Assembly (NCBI GenBank): GCA_045568775.1
Contig: JBJLAJ010000003.1
Span: 129,123-193,122, forward strand
Length of the DNA stretch: 64,000 nt
Source of the DNA: Cytophagales bacterium
Lineage (GTDB): Bacteria; Bacteroidota; Bacteroidia; Cytophagales; MED-G16
Reading direction: 5' to 3'
A model generated the notes under the pieces. That model worked only from the letters and a program-made list of their open reading frames with translations. It was not told the DNA's origin and did no database searches. Shown here in pieces: positions 7,950 through 24,406 of the stretch. The position numbers and the translations under genes are program-made. The stretch's first letter is position 1; each line of letters opens with the position of its first letter.

Positions 7950-8015
7950 TTGCAAATTTAGATAAATATTGTAACAGATCACATATATTAACGTTATTAA
8001 GATTAATATTAAAGA

Positions 8016-8297
8016 ATGAATGATATGACTACTGTAAAAATTATGATGGATGGTGAAGATTTTGGTTTTGAAATGAAAAAATCTGAAACAATTCTTGACG
8101 CAGCTCTAGAAAACGATATAGACTTACCTTACTCATGTCAAAGTGGTGTTTGTACTTCATGCCAGGGAAAATTAATTTCTGGTTCTGTTGATATGGATGT
8201 TAGTGACGGGTTATCTGATGAAGAGATAAGTGAAGGATATATTTTATGTTGTCAGGCCATCCCTTCTTCTGATTTAATTGAAGTTGAGATAGATTAG
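8016..8297 (+). CDS. plant-type [2Fe-2S] ferredoxin
   Basis: 93 aa. The C-x4-C-x2-C motif (CQSGVCTSCQG) plus the downstream ILCCQA cysteine. Confidence 0.85.
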   Translation: MNDMTTVKIMMDGEDFGFEMKKSETILDAALENDIDLPYSCQSGVCTSCQGKLISGSVDMDVSDGLSDEEISEGYILCCQAIPSSDLIEVEID

Positions 8298-8331
8298 AAT
8301 TAAAGTTTATAGTCTGTTATTAGCTTTTTTC

Positions 8332-8363
8332 TTTGAAAAATTTAAAATAATATGATACATTTG
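8332..8363 (+). promoter_or_regulatory. candidate Bacteroidota sigma-A promoter for rpoD (-33 TTTG, -7 TACATTTG)
   Basis: TTTG at 8332-8335 and TAnnTTTG match (TACATTTG) at 8356-8363 with 20-nt spacing, 27 nt upstream of the rpoD ATG. Confidence 0.4.
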
Positions 8364-8389
8364 CTGATAATTTTTCTCAAAAAACATTC

Positions 8390-9262
8390 ATGAGGCAGCT
8401 TAAGATAACACAATCAATCACTAATAGACGAGAAAGTCATACTCTAGAAAAGTACTTCACTGAAGTTAGTGGAGTCCCAATGATTACACCTGAAGAGGAA
8501 GTTAGACTAGCAAAGGAAATTAAAAAAGATAATCAAGATGCTCTTGATAAATTAGTTAGAGCAAACTTGAGGTTCGTTGTTTCAGTTGCAAAACAATACC
8601 AGAATAGAAGTCTTCCTTTAAATGACCTTATAAATGAGGGTAATTTAGGTCTTATTAAGGCTGCTAAAAAGTTTGATGAAACTAAAGGATTTAAGTTTAT
8701 TTCTTATGCAGTTTGGTGGATTAGACAGTCAATTATGCAAGCATTAGCAGAACAGTCTAGAATTGTAAGATTACCTATGAATAAATCTGGTGCAATTAAT
8801 CAGATAAGAAGGGCTTATGCTGAGTTAGAACAAAAGTATGAACGTGAGCCAACAGAAGAAGAAATTGCTGAGAACTTGGATATGAAAACTACAGAAGTTA
8901 GAAGTACTCTTGGTGCTGAAGTTAAACAAATGTCTATGGATGCTCCATTTGGTGAAGATGATTCGGGTTCTTTACTTGATGTTTTAGAAAATGATTCTGA
9001 GGGGCCAACAGATACTGGATTAGTATTTAACCATTCTCTTAAAATTGAGACTATGAGAGCTCTTTCTACTTTGACTCCTCGTGAAAGAGATGTCGTTTTA
9101 ATGAGTTTTGGCATCGGTTTTGATAATCCATATACACTAGAAGAAATAGGTGATGTGATGGGATTAACTAGAGAAAGAGTTAGACAAATTAGAGAAAAAG
9201 CACTTCAGAAATTAAGAGAGCCAGGAAAAAATAGAAGATTAAAAGAATTCTGCGCAAATTAA
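8390..9262 (+). CDS. rpoD: RNA polymerase primary sigma factor (sigma-A / RpoD, short Bacteroidota type)
   Basis: 290 aa. Region 2 (DLINEGNLGLIKAAKKFD, FISYAVWWIRQSI) and region 4 (LTPRERDVVLMSFG...TLEEIGDVMGLTRERVRQIREKAL). Confidence 0.95.
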   Translation: MRQLKITQSITNRRESHTLEKYFTEVSGVPMITPEEEVRLAKEIKKDNQDALDKLVRANLRFVVSVAKQYQNRSLPLNDLINEGNLGLIKAAKKFDETKGFKFISYAVWWIRQSIMQALAEQSRIVRLPMNKSGAINQIRRAYAELEQKYEREPTEEEIAENLDMKTTEVRSTLGAEVKQMSMDAPFGEDDSGSLLDVLENDSEGPTDTGLVFNHSLKIETMRALSTLTPRERDVVLMSFGIGFDNPYTLEEIGDVMGLTRERVRQIREKALQKLREPGKNRRLKEFCAN

Positions 9263-9367
9263 ATATTCATTATACTTCATTTTATATAAAAATTTCACTT
9301 GTTAGATTAAATAACAAAACTTATATTACGTATAGTTTATGTTGTTGAATCTTCTCTTTTTAAAAAT

Positions 9368-12300
9368 ATGAAATTTTTTAATTTAAATCTCCTCCTTCTA
9401 CTTGTACTTATTTCTTGTAATAAAATAGAAAATAATGAAAGTACATATAAACCAAAAAAGTCAAAAAAGTCAATTATTGTTGGCGATGCCAAATATGATG
9501 GGCCAGAAAAATATATGTATTATCATGCTGCAATTAAACATGGTGATGTTGATGTTAATAAACCATCTAGATTTAGGTCTTATAAATCTGATTATAAAAG
9601 AGTAGAGTTAGAGAAAGCATTAAAAAGACTTAATAATAATTATTCAAGATCAACTGGTAATCCAAACCCAAGTTATTCAACATATGCTAAGGACAATGCG
9701 GTCTTTATTGAAAGAGGTCCTTACAATGCTCCTGGTAGAACAAGAGCTTTCATAGTAGACGCTAGTGATCCATCAAAAGATACATGGATTGCAGGAAGTG
9801 TCGGTGGTGGAGTCTGGAAAAGTACAGACGGAGGGACTTCATGGGTTAGTATATCAAATGACATGGATAATATAGCTATATCGTGGTTAGGTCAATCCAA
9901 ATCTAATACAGATGTTTTATATGCTGCAACTGGTGAAAACTGGATTGGTTCTTTAGGAGATATAACTGGTGCTGGTGTTTATAAATCTGTAAATGGCGGA
10001 GCTAACTGGACTAATATATCAACAAAAGATAGCGGTGGTTATGTAGACTCTAAATTCTCTAACGTTAGTAGATTAATTGTTGATCCTAATGACTCTGATG
10101 TAGTTGTTATCAGTACAGTAGATGCAAATGATGCTGGTCATGGATATATTTTTAAAACTACAAACGGAGGAACTTCATGGTCTGATGTATTCAACCAACA
10201 TATTAGAATTCAACAAATTATAGCGGCGCCTTCAGATTTTAACATACAGTATGCTGTGCTAAGAGGTGTAGGAGTAATTAGGTCAAATGATGCGGGTTCT
10301 TCATGGTCTAACCCAGGTGGTATTGGCTTAGGAGGTACTGTCTCATACAATAATGCAGATGGTATTCTATCTGGAGGAGGAGGAGGTGCTTTTGGAAGAT
10401 TAGAGATTGCTGTTTCACATCAAAATCCTGATATTGTATATGCAGGAATTGATGGCAATGCTGCATCTTTCCTTAGAGTCTCTTATGATGGAGGAACTAC
10501 ATGGAATTTATTGAAGAATGATGATAATACGGATGATGATTGGTTATATCCACAGGGATGGTTTGATAATACTATAACTGTTAATCCATTTAATGATAGT
10601 ATAGTATATTATGGTGGAAGAGATGCAAGTAAAGCTACTGTATTACCTGATCAAGGAACCTCATTTTCAGGATCTACGACAAAAGTAACATTAGATAACA
10701 TATCATCTCACATGAATTTAGTTAATATATGGGGAGGTTCTGCAATTTCTCCTGATGAAACTGAATGGAATAATAATTCAGACAGTCCAGACCTTGTAGA
10801 TATAGAGGTAAGGTTTGGTCCAGGAAAACGACAAAAAGCATATAGATTTTCAGTACCTGAAGGTTCAACCTCTGGTGTGACTCACGATAAATATAACTAC
10901 GAAGGTGTGGTAGAGGTTCCATTTGAAGTGTGGAATATTTCTGCAGACCCAGAACAACAACTTACTGTTTCCTTTAGAGATAATGCAAACGATGGAGATT
11001 TTAATCTTCTCGCTGCCCAAGGTGACAGTAGAGAATATATATTTCCTCAATCGCTTCCTTATGACCCAGACATGAATCAGTCAGAAATTTTTGGAGATGG
11101 AACCCCTGGTAATGTCAACTCTATCTATGGCCAATTACATAAATCATTATTTCTTATATGGCCATTTCTTGCTGATGGAGTTTCTTGGGATCCTCAAAAT
11201 ATTCCTGAGTCAAAAATAAAAATTGAGTTTATTGATGCAACTTATAAGACACTAAAGAAATCTGTAGAGTATATGACTAATCAGTATGATAATGGTGGTG
11301 CATTTGATTTAAATGAAAATGTTCACGTCGATCATCATAACCTAGGAACAATTGTTGATTCAGAAGTTGATAGTACATTTAGAATATACCTTACGACTGA
11401 TGGAGGAATCTATTATACTATTTCAGATAAGGATCCAGGCGTCAAGGATGATCACTTTAAAAGAGCAGGTCTTATCTCGGATATTATGTTTGCTCCTGGA
11501 GGAGGATATAATACTACTCAATTTTATGGGGCTGATAAAATTGCAGGATTTGATCAGTATATTGCTGGTGCTCAAGATAACGGAACATTTTACTCTCCAA
11601 GAAATCAGGATGCAAGTGACACAACTAATTATTTTCATCCGATAGGTGGTGATGGTTTTGAAGTGATTGCTCACTTTACTGATCCTGATAAGATGTTTGG
11701 GGGTTATCAAGGAAATAATTTATTTTATACTCATAATGGAGGATCTACTTGGAATTATGTGGGTGGTCTTTTGACTGGCGGGGGACCATTTATAAATAGA
11801 GCATCTACTTCATACCAGGACCCTGATATTTTGTTTACAATCAATTCATCAGGTGTTGACAAATCATCAGATTTTGGAGTTTCTTGGGAACATACTTCAA
11901 TTAGCGGCACTTGGGGTAATAGTTTTTGGAGTGGGGCTGATGTTGAAGTATCTCTCGCAAACCCTAGATTCGTTTATGCTGGAGGTGTAATGGGTAATTC
12001 TGCTGATATTTTCATATCTAAAGATTGGGGTACTACATTTGACCCTGTTACAAAATTTGCAAATTTAGGAACAATCACAGGTATATACTCACACCCAAAA
12101 GAAGATTCAACTGCGTACATATTATTTGGTGTAGCAGGAGAAGCTAAAATAATTGAGACTAAAGATTTGGGTGATTCATGGACAGATATCACAGGATTCC
12201 ATTTAAACATTTCAGGAAAGTCATCAAATGGATTTCCAGATGTTGCCGTATATAGTTTTTTAGTTATGCCACACAATTGTGATATAATGTGGGCAGGAAC

Positions 12301-16160: not shown

Positions 16161-17243
16161 TGAATATAGACCAGATTAATAATTTAACAAAGCGTGCCTC
16201 GGCTCTAAGGGGCTATCTTTGACTATGAAAAAAGAAAAAAACTAATTTCTTCAAAAGAAGAGGTTTCTCTTGAACCTGACTTCTGGAATAATAGAGAAAA
16301 AGCAGAAAAAGTCTTAAAAGAAATATCTTCTAATAAAGTTTGGATCGTAGCATATGATAATATTACCAGCTCAATATCCGATCTAGAGACTTTATTTGAA
16401 TTTTATGAATCAGGTGAAGTTGATGAAGAAGAAATAGAAATAGAATATACCAAAACATTAGATTTAATTGAAAAGCTTGAGTTCAAGAAGATGCTTTCAA
16501 GTAAAGAAGATCAAATGAGCGCAATAATTGAAATTAATCCAGGTGCCGGAGGAACTGAGAGTCAAGACTGGGCAAGTATATTGATGAGAATGTATATTAT
16601 GTGGGCAGAATCTCAAAATTTTATTGTTAAAAAGGTAAATGTTCAACCTGGAGATACTGCTGGAATAAAATCTGCAATTTTGGGAATTGAAGGTCAATTT
16701 GCTTACGGTAATTTAAAATCAGAGATTGGAGTGCACAGATTAGTAAGAATTTCCCCCTTTGATTCTGGAGCGAGGAGACATACTTCTTTTGCTTCTGTAT
16801 TTGCATACCCTGAAGTTGATGAAACTATAGAAATAAATATTAACCCAGCTGATATAGAGTGGGAAACATTTAGGGCTAGTGGGGCAGGAGGTCAAAGTGT
16901 AAACAAAATTGAATCCGCGGTTAGACTTAAACATGAGCCTTCTGGTCTAATTATAGAGTGTCAGCAGGAGAGGAGTCAAATATTAAATAAAGAAAAAGCT
17001 TTAAATATGTTGAAATCTAAGTTATATCAAATAGAGGTTGATAAAGTAAATAAAGAAAAGGATGAAAGGGATAGTACTAAATTAAAGATTGATTTTGGTT
17101 CCCAAATTAGAAATTATGTTCTCCATCCTTATAAAATGATTAAAGATGTAAGAACAGGGGTTGAGAGAGGGGATGTGAATAATGTTTTGGATGGAGATAT
17201 TAATGATTTTATTAAAGCTTTTCTATTGGAAAAAGACAATTAA
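16160..17243 (+). CDS. prfB: peptide chain release factor 2, requires programmed +1 frameshift: join(16160..16219,16221..17243)
   Basis: Frame 0 reads [20 protein letters not shown] then TGA at 16220-16222. The +1 frame continues [14 protein letters not shown]... into the 16491-17243 ORF, which carries the SPF (RISPFDS) and GGQ ([10 protein letters not shown]) motifs. Confidence 0.93.
16208..16223 (+). promoter_or_regulatory. prfB +1 frameshift site: SD-like AGGGGC, TAT, slippery CTT TGA C
   Basis: AGGGGCTATCTTTGAC differs from the canonical E. coli site AGGGGGTATCTTTGAC at one base. Confidence 0.9.
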
Positions 17244-17273
17244 ATTAATAAACTTACACCCTAATATTAATTT

Positions 17274-18512
17274 ATGATTTCGGGTAAAAAATCTAGTAAA
17301 TTTACTGCTAATACTCAATTAAAAATTTCACCATTTTTTGAAAGAACATCCAAAATTAATATGTCTCAAGAGTGGAAAAGATGGGGTGGTTTTTTGGCAT
17401 CAACAAAATATGATTTACATCATGATAATGAATATTTTGCCATTAGGACTAAAGCAGGGTTATTAGATATATCACCATTGTATAAGTATAGAATTAAGGG
17501 AAAAGATTCAAAGTTATTTCTAAATAGATTAGTTACAAGAAATATTAATATATGTGAAGTAGGTCAGGTAATGTATTCTTCATGGTGTGATGAAAATGGA
17601 AAGGTTATAGATGATGGTACAATTCAAAGGCTAGATAAAGAAGATTTTAGGTTAACAAGTGCAGAACCTAATTTATATTGGTTGGAATTAAATTCTTATG
17701 GTATGGATGTTGACATTCATGATGAGTCAGAAATGATCTCTGCTTTAGCACTTCAAGGACCAAACTCTAGAGATATTATCAATTCTATTTCATCTAAATC
17801 TATAAATGATTTAAAGTTTTTTAGAATAATTAACACTGATTTTAATGGTATTGAAGTATCTATTTCAAGAACAGGATACACAGGGGATTTGGGCTATGAG
17901 ATCTGGATAAAACCTAGTGACTCTTTGAAAATTTGGGATATTTTAATTAAAAAAGGTAAAGATTTTGGTATAACTCCTGCTGGGCTTAATGCTTTAGATA
18001 TTTCTAGAATAGAAGCATCTCTTATTCTTTTAGATGTAGATTATATTTCTTCAAGACATGCACTTATTGAAGATAGAAAATCTTCTCCATATGAATTAGG
18101 TTTGGGCTGGACCGTAAAATTAAATTCAGGAAATTTTATTGGCTATAAAGCACTTAAAAATGAAAATAAAAATCCATCGCACTGGAGTTTTGTTGGGATT
18201 GAAATTTTATGGGATGACCTAGAAAAACTTTATAAAAAAGTAGGATTAGCTCCAGATCTTCCCCATGCTGCATGGAGAGATAGTGTACCTCTTTATTATA
18301 ATAAAAGTCAAGTTGGATATGCAACAAGTGGATGTTGGTCACCTATTCTTAAGAAATATATTGCACTTGCTCACGTTAATTCAAAGTATTCTTCTTTAGA
18401 TACTATCTTAGATTTTGAGATTAAGGTTGAACATTACAGACACCTAACACCTGCTAAAATTGTTAAAACCCCTTTTTACAATCCTAAAAGAAAAATGTCA
18501 TGTCCAGATTAG
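17274..18512 (+). CDS. aminomethyltransferase (GcvT/DmdA/DMGDH C-domain)-family folate-binding protein, stand-alone
   Basis: 412 aa. ISRTGYTGDLGYEIW, EYFAIRTKAGLLDISPLYKYRIKGKDS and ALALQGPNS motifs. Only 30 nt after prfB. Confidence 0.8.
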   Translation: MISGKKSSKFTANTQLKISPFFERTSKINMSQEWKRWGGFLASTKYDLHHDNEYFAIRTKAGLLDISPLYKYRIKGKDSKLFLNRLVTRNINICEVGQVMYSSWCDENGKVIDDGTIQRLDKEDFRLTSAEPNLYWLELNSYGMDVDIHDESEMISALALQGPNSRDIINSISSKSINDLKFFRIINTDFNGIEVSISRTGYTGDLGYEIWIKPSDSLKIWDILIKKGKDFGITPAGLNALDISRIEASLILLDVDYISSRHALIEDRKSSPYELGLGWTVKLNSGNFIGYKALKNENKNPSHWSFVGIEILWDDLEKLYKKVGLAPDLPHAAWRDSVPLYYNKSQVGYATSGCWSPILKKYIALAHVNSKYSSLDTILDFEIKVEHYRHLTPAKIVKTPFYNPKRKMSCPD

Positions 18513-20080
18513 ATAAGTATGATGCAATTATAATAGGAGGTGGTCATAATGGTTTAACTGCTGCTGCCTATTTGTCAAAAGCTGGAAAAAAGGTATTAGT
18601 TTTAGAGAGAAGACATGTACTGGGAGGAGCAGCAGTTACAGAAGAAGTTTTTCCTGGATTTAAATTTTCAGTTTGTTCATATGTTGTGAGTTTGTTAAAG
18701 GCTAATGTTATAAGAGAACTAATGTTACCACGTTTTGGTCTTGAAATATTACCACTAGAGAGTACATTTACTCCTCTAGATAATGACTATTTATTTAGAA
18801 CATCTGACTATGATCAAACTTACAAGGAAATATATAGACACTCTAAAAAAGATGCTGAAAATTATACTAGGTTTGGTCCATTGATGGGTCAGGTAGGTAT
18901 GGCAGTAAGGCCAATTCTAGAGACAATTGCCCCAAATGCAATAAGACCGAGCATTAATGATCTGCTTTCTTTGAAAAGTTTATTAGGTCATGTAAAAGGT
19001 TTAAATAATGAGACTTTTGAATATTTATGTAAACTCATGACAATGAGCTCTGCAGATTTTCTTGATGAATGGTTTGAATTTGAACCTCTCAAAGCTACAA
19101 TGTCAGCAAGTGGGATTATTGGAACTTTTATGGGTCCAAGGTCTCCAGGATCTGCTTATGTTATGCTTCATCATTATATGGGTGATATCGATGGATCTTT
19201 TAGGGCTTGGGGTTTCCAAAGAGGAGGAACTGGTGAATTAAGTATGACAATAGCTCGTTCTGCTAAGCATTTTGGTGCTGAAATTTTAACGGAAGCTTCA
19301 GTTGATAAAGTAATTGTTAAGAATGGTGAAGCTGTAGGTGTTGCATTAGAGAATGGTAATGAATATAAATCAGATATAGTAATTTCAGGTTTAGATCCAA
19401 AACTAACATTTCTTAAAATGATAGATGAAAGTGATCTTCCTGAAGATTTTGTTAGAGATATTAAAAACTTTAGAATTAGAGGTTCTTCAGGTAAGGTAAA
19501 TTTAGCACTTGATGGATTGCCTAATTTTACATCTTTACCTGGAGATGGTCCCCATTTAAGAGGAGCTATTTCAATAAGCCCTAGTTATGATCATCTTGAA
19601 AGAGCATATGATGATGCTAAATATGGTAATTTTTCTAAAGAGCCTTATATGGATATTATTTTACCTTCAGTTCTAGATCCTACTATGGCACCACCAGGGA
19701 AACACGTTATGTCATGTTTTGTACAGTATGCACCATATAATATAAATGGTGGCTGGGATGATAACAAAAGAGAAGCCTTTGGCGATGCAGTTGTTAATAC
19801 TCTTTCACGATTTGCCCCCAACATAAAAGACTTAATTTTACATCGCCAAGTTCTCACTCCAATGGACTTAGAAAAAACTTTTGGATTAACAGAAGGAAAT
19901 ATTTTTCATGGTGAATTAACATTACAACAACTGTTTTCATTTAGACCTGCGGTCAAATGGGCTGATTATACTACGCCTATAAAAAATTATTATCAATGTG
20001 GTTCTGGAACTCATCCAGGAGGTGGAGTCACTGGATCTCCGGGAGAAATGGCTGCTAAAAAAATTCTTAAAATATGGTAG
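18500..20080 (+). CDS. NAD(P)/FAD-dependent oxidoreductase, phytoene-desaturase/amine-oxidase superfamily (paralogue 1)
   Basis: 526 aa. YDAIIIGGGHNGLTAAAYLSKAGKKVLVLERRHVLGG dinucleotide fold. C-terminal CGSGTHPGGGVTG. Overlaps the upstream gene by 13 nt. Confidence 0.8.
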   Translation: MSRLDKYDAIIIGGGHNGLTAAAYLSKAGKKVLVLERRHVLGGAAVTEEVFPGFKFSVCSYVVSLLKANVIRELMLPRFGLEILPLESTFTPLDNDYLFRTSDYDQTYKEIYRHSKKDAENYTRFGPLMGQVGMAVRPILETIAPNAIRPSINDLLSLKSLLGHVKGLNNETFEYLCKLMTMSSADFLDEWFEFEPLKATMSASGIIGTFMGPRSPGSAYVMLHHYMGDIDGSFRAWGFQRGGTGELSMTIARSAKHFGAEILTEASVDKVIVKNGEAVGVALENGNEYKSDIVISGLDPKLTFLKMIDESDLPEDFVRDIKNFRIRGSSGKVNLALDGLPNFTSLPGDGPHLRGAISISPSYDHLERAYDDAKYGNFSKEPYMDIILPSVLDPTMAPPGKHVMSCFVQYAPYNINGGWDDNKREAFGDAVVNTLSRFAPNIKDLILHRQVLTPMDLEKTFGLTEGNIFHGELTLQQLFSFRPAVKWADYTTPIKNYYQCGSGTHPGGGVTGSPGEMAAKKILKIW

Positions 20081-21648
20081 ATAAGAAATTTGATTATATA
20101 GTTATTGGTGGAGGTATAAATTCTTTAATATCCGCAGCACTTCTATCTAAGAAAAATAAATCAGTATTATTATTTGAGTCATGCGACCAAATAGGTGGCA
20201 TGGCATCCCTAAATGAATTTTCTCCAGGGTTTAAATGTAATTTAATTTATGATTATATAAAATGGATAGACGATAGAGTAATTAAAAATTTAAAAATAAA
20301 TAAATCCTTACTTGAGTACATAGAAAATGATATATATAGGATCTCTTTAAACTCAAATACAAATGATCATATTTTTTTTAATAGAGATAATAATAAAACT
20401 GTAAAATCAATTCAATCAATTTCAAAGTCTGATTCTGAAAAGTGGATTGATTTCACAAATTATATTTCTAAAATAGCTAGTTTTCTAAAACCTCTTTATA
20501 AAATAACACCTCCTAATATTCAAAAAATGGGATTAGGTGATGCTATGTCTATGAAGGAAATGATTAAGCCAATGTGGAGTCATGGAACAAGGGGTTTTGT
20601 TGATATTTTAAGAACATTGCCAATGATGATGCCTGAGTTACTAGATGAATGGTTTGAATCAAAACTATTAAGGGGTACTATTTCTGCTAGTGGTATTCAT
20701 CATTTGAATCAGGGACCATATTCAGCTGCTACTGTTCTAAATTTTTTACATCACAACTTATATTCGGGGTCACATATTTTAGATGCTAATTTTATTAAGG
20801 GTGGGGTAAATAATTTTTCAAAAGTTCTGAAAAATAAAGCTATAGATAATGGGGCAGTAATTAAAATAAACTCTAAGGTTATATCTATAGATTGTAGTGA
20901 TGATATATGTCATGGTGTAACTTTAGAAAATGGCGAAAAGTTTTTTTGTAACAATATTATTTCAGGATTGGATCAAAACAATACTTGTATTAAATTATTA
21001 GGGCTTGAAAATCTTAATCCTAATATTAGAACACAATTAAATAATATAAAGTATAGGGGAAGTACTGCTCGAATTCATTTTGCTTTGAAAACCATACCAA
21101 AGATTAAAGGAGTTAATAATGATCAGCTAAAAACTGTATTTTCTATCACTCCATCAATCAATTATTTAGAGAAGGCATTTGATGAAGTTAAATACGGCAG
21201 ATTTTCATCATCCCCTAGTATAGAGTTTTGTATTCCTAGCCTAATTAATTCTGGATATGCTCCTAATGGTAAGCATGTTCTTTCAGCATCAATACAATAT
21301 ATTCCATATAAATTAAAAAATAAGGATTGGAATAAAAGTTTAAAAGATGATATTATTAAAAATGTTACTAATATATTAGATCAATATATTTCTAACTTTT
21401 CAGATATTATTATTGATTCTTCCATATCCACTCCATTAGATTTTGAAAATTCATTAGGGATAACTGAGGGTAGTTTTAATCATGGTGATATGACTCTTGA
21501 TCAATTTTTATTTATGAGACCAACAATTTCTTCATCACAATATAGAACTCATATTAAAAACTTATTTATCTGTGGTCCTTCAACTCATCCAGGAGGAGGC
21601 CTTCATGGATCTAATGCTTTTAATATGGTTAATGAAATACTTAAATAG
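20074..21648 (+). CDS. NAD(P)/FAD-dependent oxidoreductase, phytoene-desaturase/amine-oxidase superfamily (paralogue 2)
   Basis: 524 aa. FDYIVIGGGINSLISAALLSKKNKSVLLFESCDQIGG. C-terminal CGPSTHPGGGLHG. Collinear with paralogue 1 (LDEWFE, ISASGI, ENGE, IISGLD blocks). Overlaps it by 7 nt. Confidence 0.8.
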   Translation: MVDKKFDYIVIGGGINSLISAALLSKKNKSVLLFESCDQIGGMASLNEFSPGFKCNLIYDYIKWIDDRVIKNLKINKSLLEYIENDIYRISLNSNTNDHIFFNRDNNKTVKSIQSISKSDSEKWIDFTNYISKIASFLKPLYKITPPNIQKMGLGDAMSMKEMIKPMWSHGTRGFVDILRTLPMMMPELLDEWFESKLLRGTISASGIHHLNQGPYSAATVLNFLHHNLYSGSHILDANFIKGGVNNFSKVLKNKAIDNGAVIKINSKVISIDCSDDICHGVTLENGEKFFCNNIISGLDQNNTCIKLLGLENLNPNIRTQLNNIKYRGSTARIHFALKTIPKIKGVNNDQLKTVFSITPSINYLEKAFDEVKYGRFSSSPSIEFCIPSLINSGYAPNGKHVLSASIQYIPYKLKNKDWNKSLKDDIIKNVTNILDQYISNFSDIIIDSSISTPLDFENSLGITEGSFNHGDMTLDQFLFMRPTISSSQYRTHIKNLFICGPSTHPGGGLHGSNAFNMVNEILK

Positions 21649-22882
21649 TATTTGTTGTTTTTTTAATGCTCTTTTCCAAATGTTTTAAATACCATATTTT
21701 TAGTTTTTCTAACCCCATTTCCATTTCTGATAAAGGTCCAGGTTCATATTTTTTTGATAGAACCCCTTTCTGATTATCTTCTATTATTCTTTTGTCTTCT
21801 AAAGTAGTCTTATGCCACATCCAGGTCAATTCTTCAATATTATAATCAACTCCTTCAATTGCATTTTCATTTACTAACCACATTATTTCTATATCAGTAT
21901 CATTTGGTCCTTTTGGTATAAATGTAAAAGTTGTAGCAAAATCATTTGACATAATTATGCTGTTAAATGGGGAAGGTCCTATAGTTGTATATCCACCATC
22001 AAATTCATTAAATTCTCCCATAAGAGTTGATGCTGGCTTTCCAGACTTTGTTTCAGATAATTTCCCATTACTAAATGGAGTCCTTTCTGCACTTCTAAAG
22101 AATTCAGAGAATTTATCTTCTGAAAATTCACCAGTTAAATACCCTAATTTCTTAACCTTTTTATTCCAAATTTTTAATTTTTTATTAAATTCTTTTGATT
22201 TTGGTCCAGTATTACTCCCTGCACCATATGATTGAATATAATCTCTACTATGAACATGACAGTACTCAGGATGGGATGGTTGGCAGTGGTAACATTCATG
22301 AAAATTATCTAATGCTAATTTCCAATTTCCTTTTGTTGGATATATTTTTCTATCTGCGATTTTAGCTCTACCTAAACCATGTAATTCGATAAATGGTTTA
22401 ATTGGTTTAATGAAATTTTTAAATTCTGAGGGTTTTTCAGACAAATTAATAAATACTAATCCTTCGAAAACCTGAGAATAACATTTTTTTAAATTCCAAT
22501 CTTTAGGATTAAAGTTTTTCTCCATCATTTTAGCATTTATTAGATTTCCTCCAAGATCATAACCCCATGCATGATAAGGGCAAATAAGTTTTCTTACCCT
22601 ACCTTCATCTTCTAAACATATATGCGAACCCCTATGCCTACATACATTAAAAAAACAATTAATCTTTTCATTGTTTTCTCTTATAATAATTATTGATTCG
22701 TTTCCTATTGAAAATAAAAAATAATCTCCTTTATTTGGAATTCGAGATGCATGTCCAACAAATACCCATTGATTATAAAAAAAAGTTTCTAAATCTAATT
22801 CAAATATTTCTTTGTTAACATAGAAGGGTTGTTCAAGAGGAAATTTTTTTTTTTGAGAATTAATTAATTTTAAAATATCCAA
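21641..22882 (-). CDS. Rieske [2Fe-2S] non-haem-iron oxygenase alpha subunit, choline-monooxygenase/GbcA/CntA-like
   Basis: 413 aa. Rieske CRHRGSHIC...CPYHAWGY. Mononuclear-iron motif NWKLALDNFHECYHCQPSHPE. The 3' end overlaps the convergent flavoprotein gene by 8 nt. Confidence 0.8.
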   Translation of the reverse strand: MDILKLINSQKKKFPLEQPFYVNKEIFELDLETFFYNQWVFVGHASRIPNKGDYFLFSIGNESIIIIRENNEKINCFFNVCRHRGSHICLEDEGRVRKLICPYHAWGYDLGGNLINAKMMEKNFNPKDWNLKKCYSQVFEGLVFINLSEKPSEFKNFIKPIKPFIELHGLGRAKIADRKIYPTKGNWKLALDNFHECYHCQPSHPEYCHVHSRDYIQSYGAGSNTGPKSKEFNKKLKIWNKKVKKLGYLTGEFSEDKFSEFFRSAERTPFSNGKLSETKSGKPASTLMGEFNEFDGGYTTIGPSPFNSIIMSNDFATTFTFIPKGPNDTDIEIMWLVNENAIEGVDYNIEELTWMWHKTTLEDKRIIEDNQKGVLSKKYEPGPLSEMEMGLEKLKIWYLKHLEKSIKKTTNTI

Positions 22883-22978
22883 ATTATTTTTTTATTCATT
22901 TATATATAAGCTATTATACTTTTATTTAAGGTACTTTTCCAGTTTTTCTTAATAAATATTATTAATTTGTTATGAATC

Positions 22979-24406
22979 ATGAAAAAAAGAATACCTACTT
23001 TAATTGAGTCTTTTCTACCGATAATATTTCTTGTAATATTTTTATCTATTAATGTCACAGTTTTTGGAGATGATGCTCTATCTGGAAGTATTCAGATTGT
23101 TCTTATCTTTTCGTCAGCTATAGCTACTGTAATTGCATTTAATTTAGGTTTTACATGGATTGAAATCCAAAAGGGGATTCAAAATAGTATTAATTCTGCT
23201 ATACCTTCAATTCTTATACTTTTTCTTGTTGGCTCACTTGCTGGGTCTTGGTTATTGAGTGGAATTGTACCTGCTCTAATCTATTATGGTATTCAAATTT
23301 TAAATGCTAAAATATTTTTATTTGCTGCTTGTATTATATGTATTATAGTTTCAATGGCAACTGGAAGTTCTTGGACAACATCTGCTACAATTGGTATAGC
23401 TTTAATAGGAATTGGTAAAGCTCTTAATATTCCTGAAGGGTTAATTGCAGGTGCCATTCTTAGTGGTGCTTATTTTGGAGACAAAATGTCTCCTTTATCA
23501 GACACGACGAATCTTGCTCCGGCAATGGCTGGTAGTGATTTATTTACTCATATTAAATATTTATCAATAACCACTTTTCCATCTATAATTATTTCACTTG
23601 TTATTTTTATTATAATGGGCATGAATATTTCGAGTGATGTGAATATTGATAATGCTTCACTAATTTCATCTTCCATTCTAGATAAATTTTATATATCCCC
23701 AATTTTATTTTTAGTCCCTTTCACTGTTATCTTTCTCATTTATAAAAAAATAAAAGCAGTCCCTTCATTATTTGTTGGTGTAGTCTTAGGATCTGTTTTT
23801 GCTTTAATATTTCAGCCTGATTTAGTTAGAGAGGTATCAGGAAATCTTTCAGAAGACTGGACTTCATTATTTATTGGAATAATGAAATCATTATATGGGT
23901 CAATTTCAATATCAACATCTAATGAGTTAGTATCTGATCTTCTTTCATCAAGTGGGATGTATGGTATGTTAGGGACTATTTGGTTAGTTGTTTCAGCTAT
24001 GATTTTTGGTGGTGTTATGGACAAAGCAGGTTTTCTAAATGTAATTTCATCTTTAATTTTAAAGAAAGTTAATTCAGCGGGATCCTTAGTAACCTCAACC
24101 GCAGGAACTTGTATATTTTTTAACTTAACTGCATCAGATCAATATATATCAATAGTTGTTCCTGGTAAAATGTACTCAAAAATATATAAGGATAAAGGAC
24201 TTGCTCCTGAGAATTTGAGTAGAACTTTAGAAGATAGTGGAACTGTCACATCGGTCTTAATTCCATGGAATACTTGTGGTGCATACCATGCTAGTGTTTT
24301 AAATGTATCTACTTTAACTTACTTACCTTACTGTTTTTTTAGTATTATTAGTCCTATTATCACAATCTTAATAGCCTATTTAAAGATAAGAATAAAACGT
24401 TTATAG
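22979..24406 (+). CDS. NhaC-family membrane transporter (Na+/H+ antiporter family, substrate unknown)
   Basis: 475 aa, about 11-12 hydrophobic helices. The YFGDKMSPLSDTTNLA and SVLIPWNTCGAYH blocks are typical of NhaC-family proteins. Confidence 0.75.
   Translation: MKKRIPTLIESFLPIIFLVIFLSINVTVFGDDALSGSIQIVLIFSSAIATVIAFNLGFTWIEIQKGIQNSINSAIPSILILFLVGSLAGSWLLSGIVPALIYYGIQILNAKIFLFAACIICIIVSMATGSSWTTSATIGIALIGIGKALNIPEGLIAGAILSGAYFGDKMSPLSDTTNLAPAMAGSDLFTHIKYLSITTFPSIIISLVIFIIMGMNISSDVNIDNASLISSSILDKFYISPILFLVPFTVIFLIYKKIKAVPSLFVGVVLGSVFALIFQPDLVREVSGNLSEDWTSLFIGIMKSLYGSISISTSNELVSDLLSSSGMYGMLGTIWLVVSAMIFGGVMDKAGFLNVISSLILKKVNSAGSLVTSTAGTCIFFNLTASDQYISIVVPGKMYSKIYKDKGLAPENLSRTLEDSGTVTSVLIPWNTCGAYHASVLNVSTLTYLPYCFFSIISPIITILIAYLKIRIKRL

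Follow-up and report, generated by a model that had tools for sequence, protein, structure and literature searches.

The reverse strand of a 64,000-nucleotide stretch of a Cytophagales genome (contig JBJLAJ010000003.1 of assembly GCA_045568775.1, positions 129,123 to 193,122; hereafter, the window) codes for a protein, P0001, which, judged by its sequence and predicted structure, is an intact Rieske oxygenase of group V, the quaternary-amine group. The G+C content of the window is about 28%, and the host genome is assembled into 1.72 Mb in 11 contigs, with a completeness of 94.6%. The P0001 gene converges on a trio of genes that code for a stand-alone GcvT-like folate protein and two flavoproteins, and on its other side it is flanked by a divergent transporter gene (Table 1).

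Table 1. Location of the genes and sequence features in the window
Feature	Position	Strand	Basis
Rieske non-haem-iron oxygenase alpha subunit, P0001, 413 amino acids from TTG	21641..22882	-	Open reading frame call; Pfam, NCBIfam and PDB matches; AlphaFold2 model
Rieske [2Fe-2S] motif CRHRGSHIC...CPYHAWGY, ligands C81, H83, C101, H104	22559..22642	-	Invariant alignment columns
Mononuclear-iron motif NWKLALDNFHECYHCQPSHPE, with bridging E196, C197/C200 pair, His199/His204	22265..22327	-	Translation, alignments
Phe194, position equivalent to CntA Tyr203	22301-22303	-	Motif comparison; PMC7948474, PMC10952381
Asp363, probable third iron ligand, C-terminal helix	21794..21796	-	Invariant in 31 homologues
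Upstream ATG (22899-22897), then A7 run (22887-22893)	22887..22899	-	Comparison with 419-amino-acid database twins
8-nucleotide tail-to-tail overlap TTAAATAG, Rieske gene/flavoprotein gene 2	21641..21648	.	Both stops read in the sequence
GcvT-like folate protein, stand-alone, first gene of the trio; 69% identity to Marinimicrobia counterpart	17274..18512	+	Pfam/NCBIfam, comparison
Flavoprotein 1 (FAD1), CrtO/amine-oxidase-like	18500..20080	+	Pfam/NCBIfam, comparison
Flavoprotein 2 (FAD2), paralogue 33% identical to flavoprotein 1	20074..21648	+	Pfam, comparison
NhaC-family transporter, divergent	22979..24406	+	Conserved family neighbour
Plant-type [2Fe-2S] ferredoxin, 93 amino acids, candidate electron carrier	8016..8297	+	Only free Fer2 protein in genome

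Two domains of P0001 are recognized by Pfam, a Rieske domain (PF00355, residues 38-122, 57.9 bits, E 1e-15) and a Ring_hydroxyl_A catalytic domain (PF00848, residues 178-403, 94.9 bits, E 8e-27). The Rieske centre and the iron motif, on which the original prediction for this locus was built, are both present in the translation, and their key columns do not vary: the four cluster ligands, E196, C197, H199, C200 and H204 of NWKLALDNFHECYHCQPSHPE, and D363 are invariant in both alignments (13 and 31 homologues). D363 is probably the third ligand of the mononuclear iron, as its place in the C-terminal helix suggests.

The NCBIfam model that fits P0001 best is GbcA (NF058607), which covers its full length and scores 324.7 bits, with a cut-off of 670; the models of aromatic dioxygenases reach at most 110 bits and extend no further than the N-terminal part. 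The same picture emerges from phmmer comparison with the PDB, in which Stc2 (3VCA, E 3e-77) and 3N0Q (E 1e-74) are matched over the full length, while CntA (8.6e-34) and the aromatic dioxygenases align only to residues 18-208. The AlphaFold2 model of P0001 (predicted local distance difference test score 94, predicted template-modelling score 0.92) was compared to known structures by Foldseek, with template-modelling (TM) scores of 0.91 to 3N0Q and 0.90 to Stc2, versus 0.63-0.70 to CntA or biphenyl-type enzymes. According to Quareshy et al., group V is marked by a bridging Glu that replaces Asp and by a CxxC pair next to the iron (PMC7948474, PMC10952381). P0001 has both, in the string E196-C197-Y198-H199-C200, which is identical in Stc2, Ralstonia GbcA and E. 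coli YeaW. P0001 is the sole Rieske protein in the genome, and, at the 94.6% completeness of the latter, no match to the beta-subunit family PF00866 was found in it; the enzyme is probably a homotrimer without beta subunit. The proposed membership in the quaternary-amine Rieske subgroup is thus upheld by the full-length match to Stc2, by the score of the GbcA model compared to those of the aromatic models, and by the ECYHC motif, and the outcome that had been named as contrary to it, a placement among the aromatic dioxygenases, is not the case. Neighbours of the GcvT, dimethylglycine dehydrogenase (DMGDH) and amine-oxidase types, described below, suggest action on a quaternary ammonium substrate.

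The TTG codon called as the start of P0001 may be an artefact. An upstream ATG is out of the Rieske frame solely through a run of seven A residues, and the 419-amino-acid database twins start with MNKKNNLD..., matching the frame that a run of eight would give. The shorter run may reflect an assembly error or a natural length variation that shifts the start codon. At the 3' end, the overlap with the second flavoprotein gene that was noticed in the original prediction is real, as TTAAATAG contains both stop codons, TAG for the flavoprotein gene and, on the opposite strand, TAA for the Rieske gene. We considered this overlap as a regulatory feature and rejected it: relatives have a gap of about 12 nucleotides at the same place, and an overlap that is not kept in relatives speaks of genome compaction and not of a signal.

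Position of P0001 within group V

When 1.84 billion cluster representatives were searched, the relatives of P0001 fell in one 50% cluster; the next best protein is 45% identical, and the ten best cluster representatives outside are metagenomic. The gene is found in 22 of 24 genomes of the window's family (three genera, 1.0-1.8 Mb) and was not found in 16 other families of the same order. In the public records, homologous proteins and contigs are labelled as metagenome-assembled genomes (MAGs) of Cytophagales, Flammeovirgaceae or "Marinoscillum sp.".

Two trees were inferred, with E. coli YeaW (CntA), the most distant row in both, as the root. The references were Sinorhizobium meliloti Stc2, accompanied by stc4, the homologues from Paracoccus, Cereibacter and Tritonibacter, and the GbcA encoded on a Ralstonia megaplasmid in the full gbcAB-dgcAB-etf(AB) context; none of the five genomes reached through the loci contained a GbcA scoring above the cut-off. 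In the careful tree, GbcA and Stc2 form a clade with 100/100 support, from which the window's clade is excluded; the latter makes a separate branch near the base, with a long stem. Joining GbcA and Stc2 with the window's clade by constraint makes the tree 63 log-likelihood units worse and is rejected by the approximately unbiased (AU) test (p-AU 0.0004, for a group that was named after inspection of the tree). On the GbcA model, Stc2 scores 494.8 bits, above P0001. The phylogenetic check suggested in the original prediction therefore gives a split result: P0001 belongs to the quaternary-amine group, as foreseen, but lies outside the GbcA/Stc2 clade, and its orthology to GbcA fails on the score, the tree and the AU test. 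These sequence comparisons assign P0001 to an uncharacterised branch that stands apart within group V and is restricted to a single family, whose genomes are streamlined, marine and Cytophagales-like.

The residue two positions before the bridging Glu is Asn in the demethylases GbcA and Stc2, and Tyr or Phe in CntA, choline monooxygenase (CMO) and OxyBAC; in CntA, the aromatic side chain at this position, Tyr203, binds the ammonium group by a cation-pi contact, and CMO is placed together with CntA in clade Va (PMC7948474). P0001 and the other four family sequences examined (5 of 5) have Phe194 here, in the string DNFHECYHC, and all examined members of the GbcA/Stc2 clade have Asn, in the string ENNRECYHC. 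As far as can be judged from alignment and model, P0001 pairs a Stc2-like fold with a clade-Va-like residue.

Electron supply

A search confirms the earlier statement that the window has no FNR-type reductase gene, and in none of the family genomes examined is such a gene found beside the Rieske gene. Characterised relatives do normally sit beside one, as had been stated: this holds for Stc2/Stc4, Ralstonia GbcA/GbcB and E. coli YeaW/YeaX, and also for homologues from Paracoccus, Cereibacter and Mesorhizobium. Among about 30 loci examined, a reductase adjoins the oxygenase only in the homologues from Paraburkholderia, Caballeronia, Gluconacetobacter and Mesorhizobium and in the GbcA/Stc2 clade. 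In this part of the tree, oxygenase genes commonly lack a neighbouring reductase gene, and the window locus is not peculiar in this respect.

The genome-wide search for an FNR-like reductase that had been proposed as a check finds one soluble protein of this type, outside the window: a protein of 229 amino acids (G000:C2:23981-24667), encoded next to dnaA and purF. This protein and the free ferredoxin encoded in the window are the best genome matches of the GbcB and Stc4 queries; in BenC, MmoC, AntC and GbcB, the FNR-like protein finds its match in the flavin/NAD part and the ferredoxin in the Fer2 part. In this family, the two are encoded apart, on different contigs; in other families of the order, they form a single fused frame of about 350-390 amino acids. 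Most likely, we infer, the oxygenase borrows this generic FNR-like/ferredoxin chain. A dedicated reductase appears dispensable, which bears on annotation pipelines in which the oxygenase-reductase pair is used as a marker of betaine use.

The genome also contains two near-identical NqrF genes with the same neighbours (G000:C11:198398-199696 and G000:C6:1028-2359), one of them close to a contig end; probably, these represent strain heterogeneity or a split assembly, and not a true duplication.

The neighbouring trio and its recurrence

The GcvT-like protein has as its best NCBIfam match the C-terminal half of trimethylamine N-oxide (TMAO) demethylase. The only other GcvT homologue in the genome (G000:C11:41792-42876), presumably the canonical glycine-cleavage T protein, is split into two overlapping frames, which suggests a frameshift or a sequencing error. 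Flavoprotein 1 is 88-97% identical within the family; its identity is 94-97% where that of prfB is about 80% and that of the Rieske protein about 78%. Marine metagenomes abound in proteins 83-85% identical to it, and those few that have an organism name are labelled Marinimicrobia. Such conservation across phyla points either to a passage of the cassette from one phylum to another or to extreme constraint. In UniRef, a close homologue of flavoprotein 1 has a name that begins with "Pyridine nucleotide-disulfide oxid...".

Within the family, the region from an ABC ATPase gene to a gene of a short-chain dehydrogenase/reductase is syntenic, with the exception of one slot, which is bounded by prfB and the Rieske gene (17243-21641 in the window). 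In 25 family genomes, the source genome included, this slot is occupied by one of three mutually exclusive oxidoreductase inserts, never by two. The trio, in the order GcvT-FAD1-FAD2, stands there together with the Rieske gene in 11 genomes (all of two genera and five of a third); a single distant CrtI-like flavoprotein, in 8; and a saccharopine-dehydrogenase-like gene, in 4. Two more genomes, G013 and G016, have the saccharopine-dehydrogenase-like gene and the NhaC gene, and no Rieske gene. The saccharopine-dehydrogenase-like insert, which persists in these two genomes, was rejected as a Rieske-dependent partner, and so was NhaC as a dedicated uptake partner, given that it is kept in the same two genomes with all flanks syntenic; in other phyla, no NhaC gene recurs beside the homologues. 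Wherever this family has the trio, it adjoins the Rieske gene; no copy is located at another place of the genome.

Similar modules are found beyond this family. Porticoccaceae, a Pseudomonadales MAG, a gammaproteobacterial MAG and Poriferihabitaceae (sponge symbiont) have, upstream of a group V Rieske gene, orthologues of flavoprotein 1 that are 48-49% identical to it, each followed by a FAD2-type paralogue and GcvT. In the Pseudomonadales MAG (L053, 3267-6053), a flavoprotein-2-type gene is fused to GcvT, giving a product of 928 amino acids; such a fusion speaks for joint action of the two proteins. In another family of Bacteroidota, the order GcvT-FAD1-FAD2-Rieske makes up a compact operon. 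A five-gene translationally coupled operon of Marinimicrobia type, found on a TARA scaffold (L150, 5906-12261), codes for a dimethylargininase/arginine-deiminase-like protein, GcvT (69% identical to its counterpart in the window), flavoprotein 1 (83%; 8001-9584), flavoprotein 2 (52%) and a group V Rieske protein of 371 amino acids that is 29% identical to P0001; genes for an amino-acid permease, an M20 peptidase and a pyridoxal-phosphate-dependent decarboxylase lie upstream of this operon. In the clade nearest to P0001 (Novosphingobium, Sphingorhabdus, Steroidobacteraceae and a gammaproteobacterial MAG), the Rieske genes stand directly behind two DMGDH-type genes in which a DAO domain is fused to GcvT. 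In all, at least six other lineages have the trio or the two DMGDH-type fusions beside a group V Rieske gene, and the Rieske proteins so paired with folate-coupled flavoproteins belong to three distinct branches, each of which has Tyr or Phe at the diagnostic site. Two complete Bacteroidota genomes that have GcvT-FAD1 are without any group V Rieske gene. Our literature searches did not retrieve the combination of GcvT, CrtI-like and Rieske proteins.

Two further loci deserve mention. In a complete Bacteroidota genome (L149, G344:C1, 8397-12546), the orthologue of flavoprotein 1 is in two halves about 2.5 kb apart, in an insertion-like arrangement. On a plasmid of Yoonia sp. SS1-5 (L108, 8830-18422), a 42%-identical homologue is located between TetR and agmatinase genes and is followed by genes for an oxidoreductase of the flavin mononucleotide/flavin adenine dinucleotide type, a Tm-1-like ATP-binding protein, a DMGDH-sized flavoprotein and an aminotransferase; judged by its gene content, this looks like another methylated-amine cluster without reductase.

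Proposed function and comparison with known systems

What the analysis shows is fold, metal sites and family placement, together with the lack of a dedicated reductase and the recurrent neighbourhood; the reaction, the electron donors, the hand-over and the substrate are inferred. The best explanation, in which our confidence is only a little above even, is that P0001 is the monooxygenase component of a group V system, works with borrowed donors, and hands its product over to the trio. P0001 would oxidise an N-attached carbon of a trimethylammonium-type compound; in the likeliest reaction, one N-methyl would be lost as formaldehyde, leaving a tertiary amine. The electrons of NAD(P)H would travel via the FNR-like flavoprotein of contig C2 and the window ferredoxin, which jointly would rebuild a reductase of the GbcB/BenC type. 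The adjacent GcvT-like protein and two flavoproteins would then probably demethylate the tertiary and secondary amines further, delivering the methyl carbon to tetrahydrofolate. We propose that the oxygenase acts first, on the fully methylated nitrogen, which is not oxidisable by a flavin amine oxidase, and that the flavoproteins with GcvT remove the remaining methyls.

Glycine betaine, other amino-acid betaines and N6-trimethyllysine are candidate substrates. Related clusters contain genes for PuuA-like ligase, PuuB-like oxidase, PuuD-like amidotransferase, aminotransferases and proteins of the arginase family; these neighbours, the agmatinase in Yoonia, and the dimethylargininase-like protein in Marinimicrobia suggest methylated derivatives of amines or basic amino acids no less than glycine betaine. 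Variants of human PYROXD2 explain up to 50% of the variance of plasma N6-methyllysine, and are associated also with dimethyl- and trimethyllysine, N-methylpipecolate, and urinary trimethylamine and dimethylamine (PMC8109053, PMC3169529); methyl-lysines are a candidate substrate of the bacterial system, no more. The original prediction had offered the route from betaine through dimethylglycine and sarcosine to glycine as an example. The division of labour between oxygenase and flavoproteins survives from it, but glycine betaine is merely one candidate, and neither DAO-type DMGDH nor sarcosine oxidase was found in the genome. That prediction was right in kind, wrong in the specific family assignment, and too narrow on the substrate.

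A number of observations weigh against our proposal. The Rieske gene is kept without the trio in 12 of the 25 family genomes, so the oxygenase must be useful without the trio; where both are present, they are convergent and not co-transcribed. The cooperation between oxygenase and operon, as first suggested, gains from its recurrence in at least six other lineages, but it is optional, with the trio in 11 of 25 family genomes. The FNR-like/ferredoxin pair is present also in G013, which has no Rieske gene, and probably serves, in addition, the three genes of the fatty-acid-desaturase family in the host genome; it is thus a generic and not a dedicated chain. A search of the genome for betaine transporters of the BCCT or OpuAC type was negative. 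The P0001 branch is biochemically uncharacterised, and as Phe194 stands where CntA, CMO and OxyBAC have Tyr or Phe, the reaction may not be demethylation, C-N cleavage or hydroxylation of a chain carbon being the alternative.

Some of these observations also fit a view in which the oxygenase and the operon are unrelated neighbours, the trio having landed in a variable slot of a fixed gene order. We regard this as unlikely, yet worth serious consideration. It is consistent with the alternation of the trio (11 genomes) with the saccharopine-dehydrogenase-like gene (6) and the single flavoprotein (8) in the slot, with the convergent orientation, and with the two complete Bacteroidota genomes that have GcvT-FAD1 and no group V Rieske gene; moreover, the closest relatives of the trio, those of Marinimicrobia, carry a different Rieske gene of their own, which is lacking in this family. 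Against it speaks the number of lineages, seven at least, and of distinct Rieske branches, three, in which the trio adjoins a group V Rieske gene, a record that is hard to put down to chance; in this family, the trio is located beside the Rieske gene only.

A farther-reaching reading, to which we give a rather low probability, makes the P0001 branch a third type within group V, in which the Stc2-like fold and the CntA-like cation-pi residue would be combined in an enzyme feeding flavoprotein/GcvT demethylases, with a non-glycine trimethylammonium compound, such as N6-trimethyllysine or an amino-acid betaine, as the substrate. In a bolder form of this reading, the oxygenase would be supplied with electrons by the demethylations that the flavoproteins carry out in the same pathway, which would account for the lack of reductase genes in all these clusters.

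It is improbable that P0001 is this organism's GbcA/BmoA, acting on glycine betaine in the classical route to glycine. GbcA is the best-scoring NCBIfam model, the nearest outside clade adjoins two DMGDH-type genes, which are the classical partners in betaine breakdown, and seawater is rich in glycine betaine, which marine communities metabolise (PMC9321204). Yet the score of P0001 is far under the equivalog cut-off and is exceeded by that of Stc2, a different enzyme; the tree excludes P0001 from the GbcA and Stc2 clade, and its forced inclusion is rejected; the motif is DNFHECYHC instead of ENNRECYHC; and GbcB is missing from the neighbourhood, as are the betaine transporters, DAO-type DMGDH and sarcosine oxidase from the genome searches. 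On the cut-off, the tree and the AU test, we reject orthology with GbcA.

An enzyme of clade Va, similar to CntA or CMO, would hydroxylate the chain carbon next to the nitrogen and release a small methylamine such as trimethylamine, to be demethylated by the trio. For P0001 we find this equally doubtful. Phe194 occupies the place of the cation-pi residue of CntA, the GcvT-like neighbour resembles a part of TMAO demethylase, and the Marinimicrobia operon opens with a gene similar to dimethylargininase, a family that releases di- and monomethylamine; variants at the human PYROXD2 locus, which track urinary trimethylamine and dimethylamine (PMC3169529, PMC8109053), would fit as well if flavoprotein 1 resembled PYROXD2. 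Sequence and modelled fold argue otherwise, being much closer to Stc2: the TM score is 0.90 to Stc2 versus 0.67-0.70 to CntA, CntA aligns with the N-terminal half only, and the pocket of the catalytic domain is not reliably alignable with that of CntA.

Finally, databases label the homologues "aromatic ring-hydroxylating dioxygenase subunit alpha", but such an identity for P0001 is highly improbable and was rejected, as the models and structures of aromatic dioxygenases match its Rieske domain only, the bridging residue is Glu where Asp is usual and is joined by the CxxC pair of group V, and there is neither a beta-subunit gene in the genome nor any aromatic catabolic gene in the window.

Betaines, choline derivatives and methyl-lysines make up a large share of labile marine organic nitrogen. 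To our knowledge, the enzymes known for the first step, BHMT, GbcAB and MtgB, leave some of the users of methylated ammonium compounds unaccounted for. The gene described here marks an uncharacterised and widespread branch of quaternary-amine oxygenases in abundant streamlined plankton, and such oxygenases are repeatedly coupled to a module of GcvT and CrtO-like flavoproteins across several phyla. If flavoprotein 1 resembles human PYROXD2, the bacterial clusters would offer a direct route to test that orphan enzyme.

Of the known systems, the closest in structure are Stc2 of S. meliloti (3VCA/4QUP), a stachydrine (proline betaine) demethylase, and 3N0Q of Ruegeria sp. TM1040, which have the same two-domain fold (root-mean-square deviation of about 2 Å) and are about 36% identical to P0001 over the full length. 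P0001 and Stc2 have in common the Rieske ligands, the His-His-Asp iron site, the bridging Glu, the CxxC pair, a conserved tryptophan (Trp356 in P0001, Trp353 in Stc2; the comparison of the pockets covered this residue and the motif region) and the lack of a beta subunit. They differ ahead of the bridging Glu, where P0001 has Phe-His and Stc2 has Asn-Arg, in the loop around residues 216-245, and in their partners: Stc2 works with a StcD-type demethylase containing flavin mononucleotide and Fe-S and has an adjoining gene for a Stc4-type reductase, whereas P0001 is accompanied by GcvT and CrtO-like flavoproteins and by no reductase gene. GbcA/BmoA are similar to P0001 in motif architecture and in the expected trimethylammonium chemistry; unlike them, P0001 has Phe for Asn at the diagnostic site, and its locus is without adjacent GbcB, dgcAB or etf genes. 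CntA/YeaW, CMO and OxyBAC of clade Va share with P0001 the marks of group V and have, like it, an aromatic side chain at the diagnostic site (Tyr203 in CntA, Phe194 in P0001); CntA is alignable in sequence over the N-terminal half only, its fold is much less similar (TM score 0.67-0.70), and neither a CntB/YeaX reductase gene nor a BCCT gene adjoins P0001. The flavoproteins of the trio belong to the CrtO/amine-oxidase type and GcvT is a separate protein, in contrast to the DAO-family enzymes of dimethylglycine and sarcosine breakdown; yet those folate-coupled N-demethylases (dehydrogenases as well as oxidases) combine a flavoprotein with a GcvT folate domain, just as the trio does.

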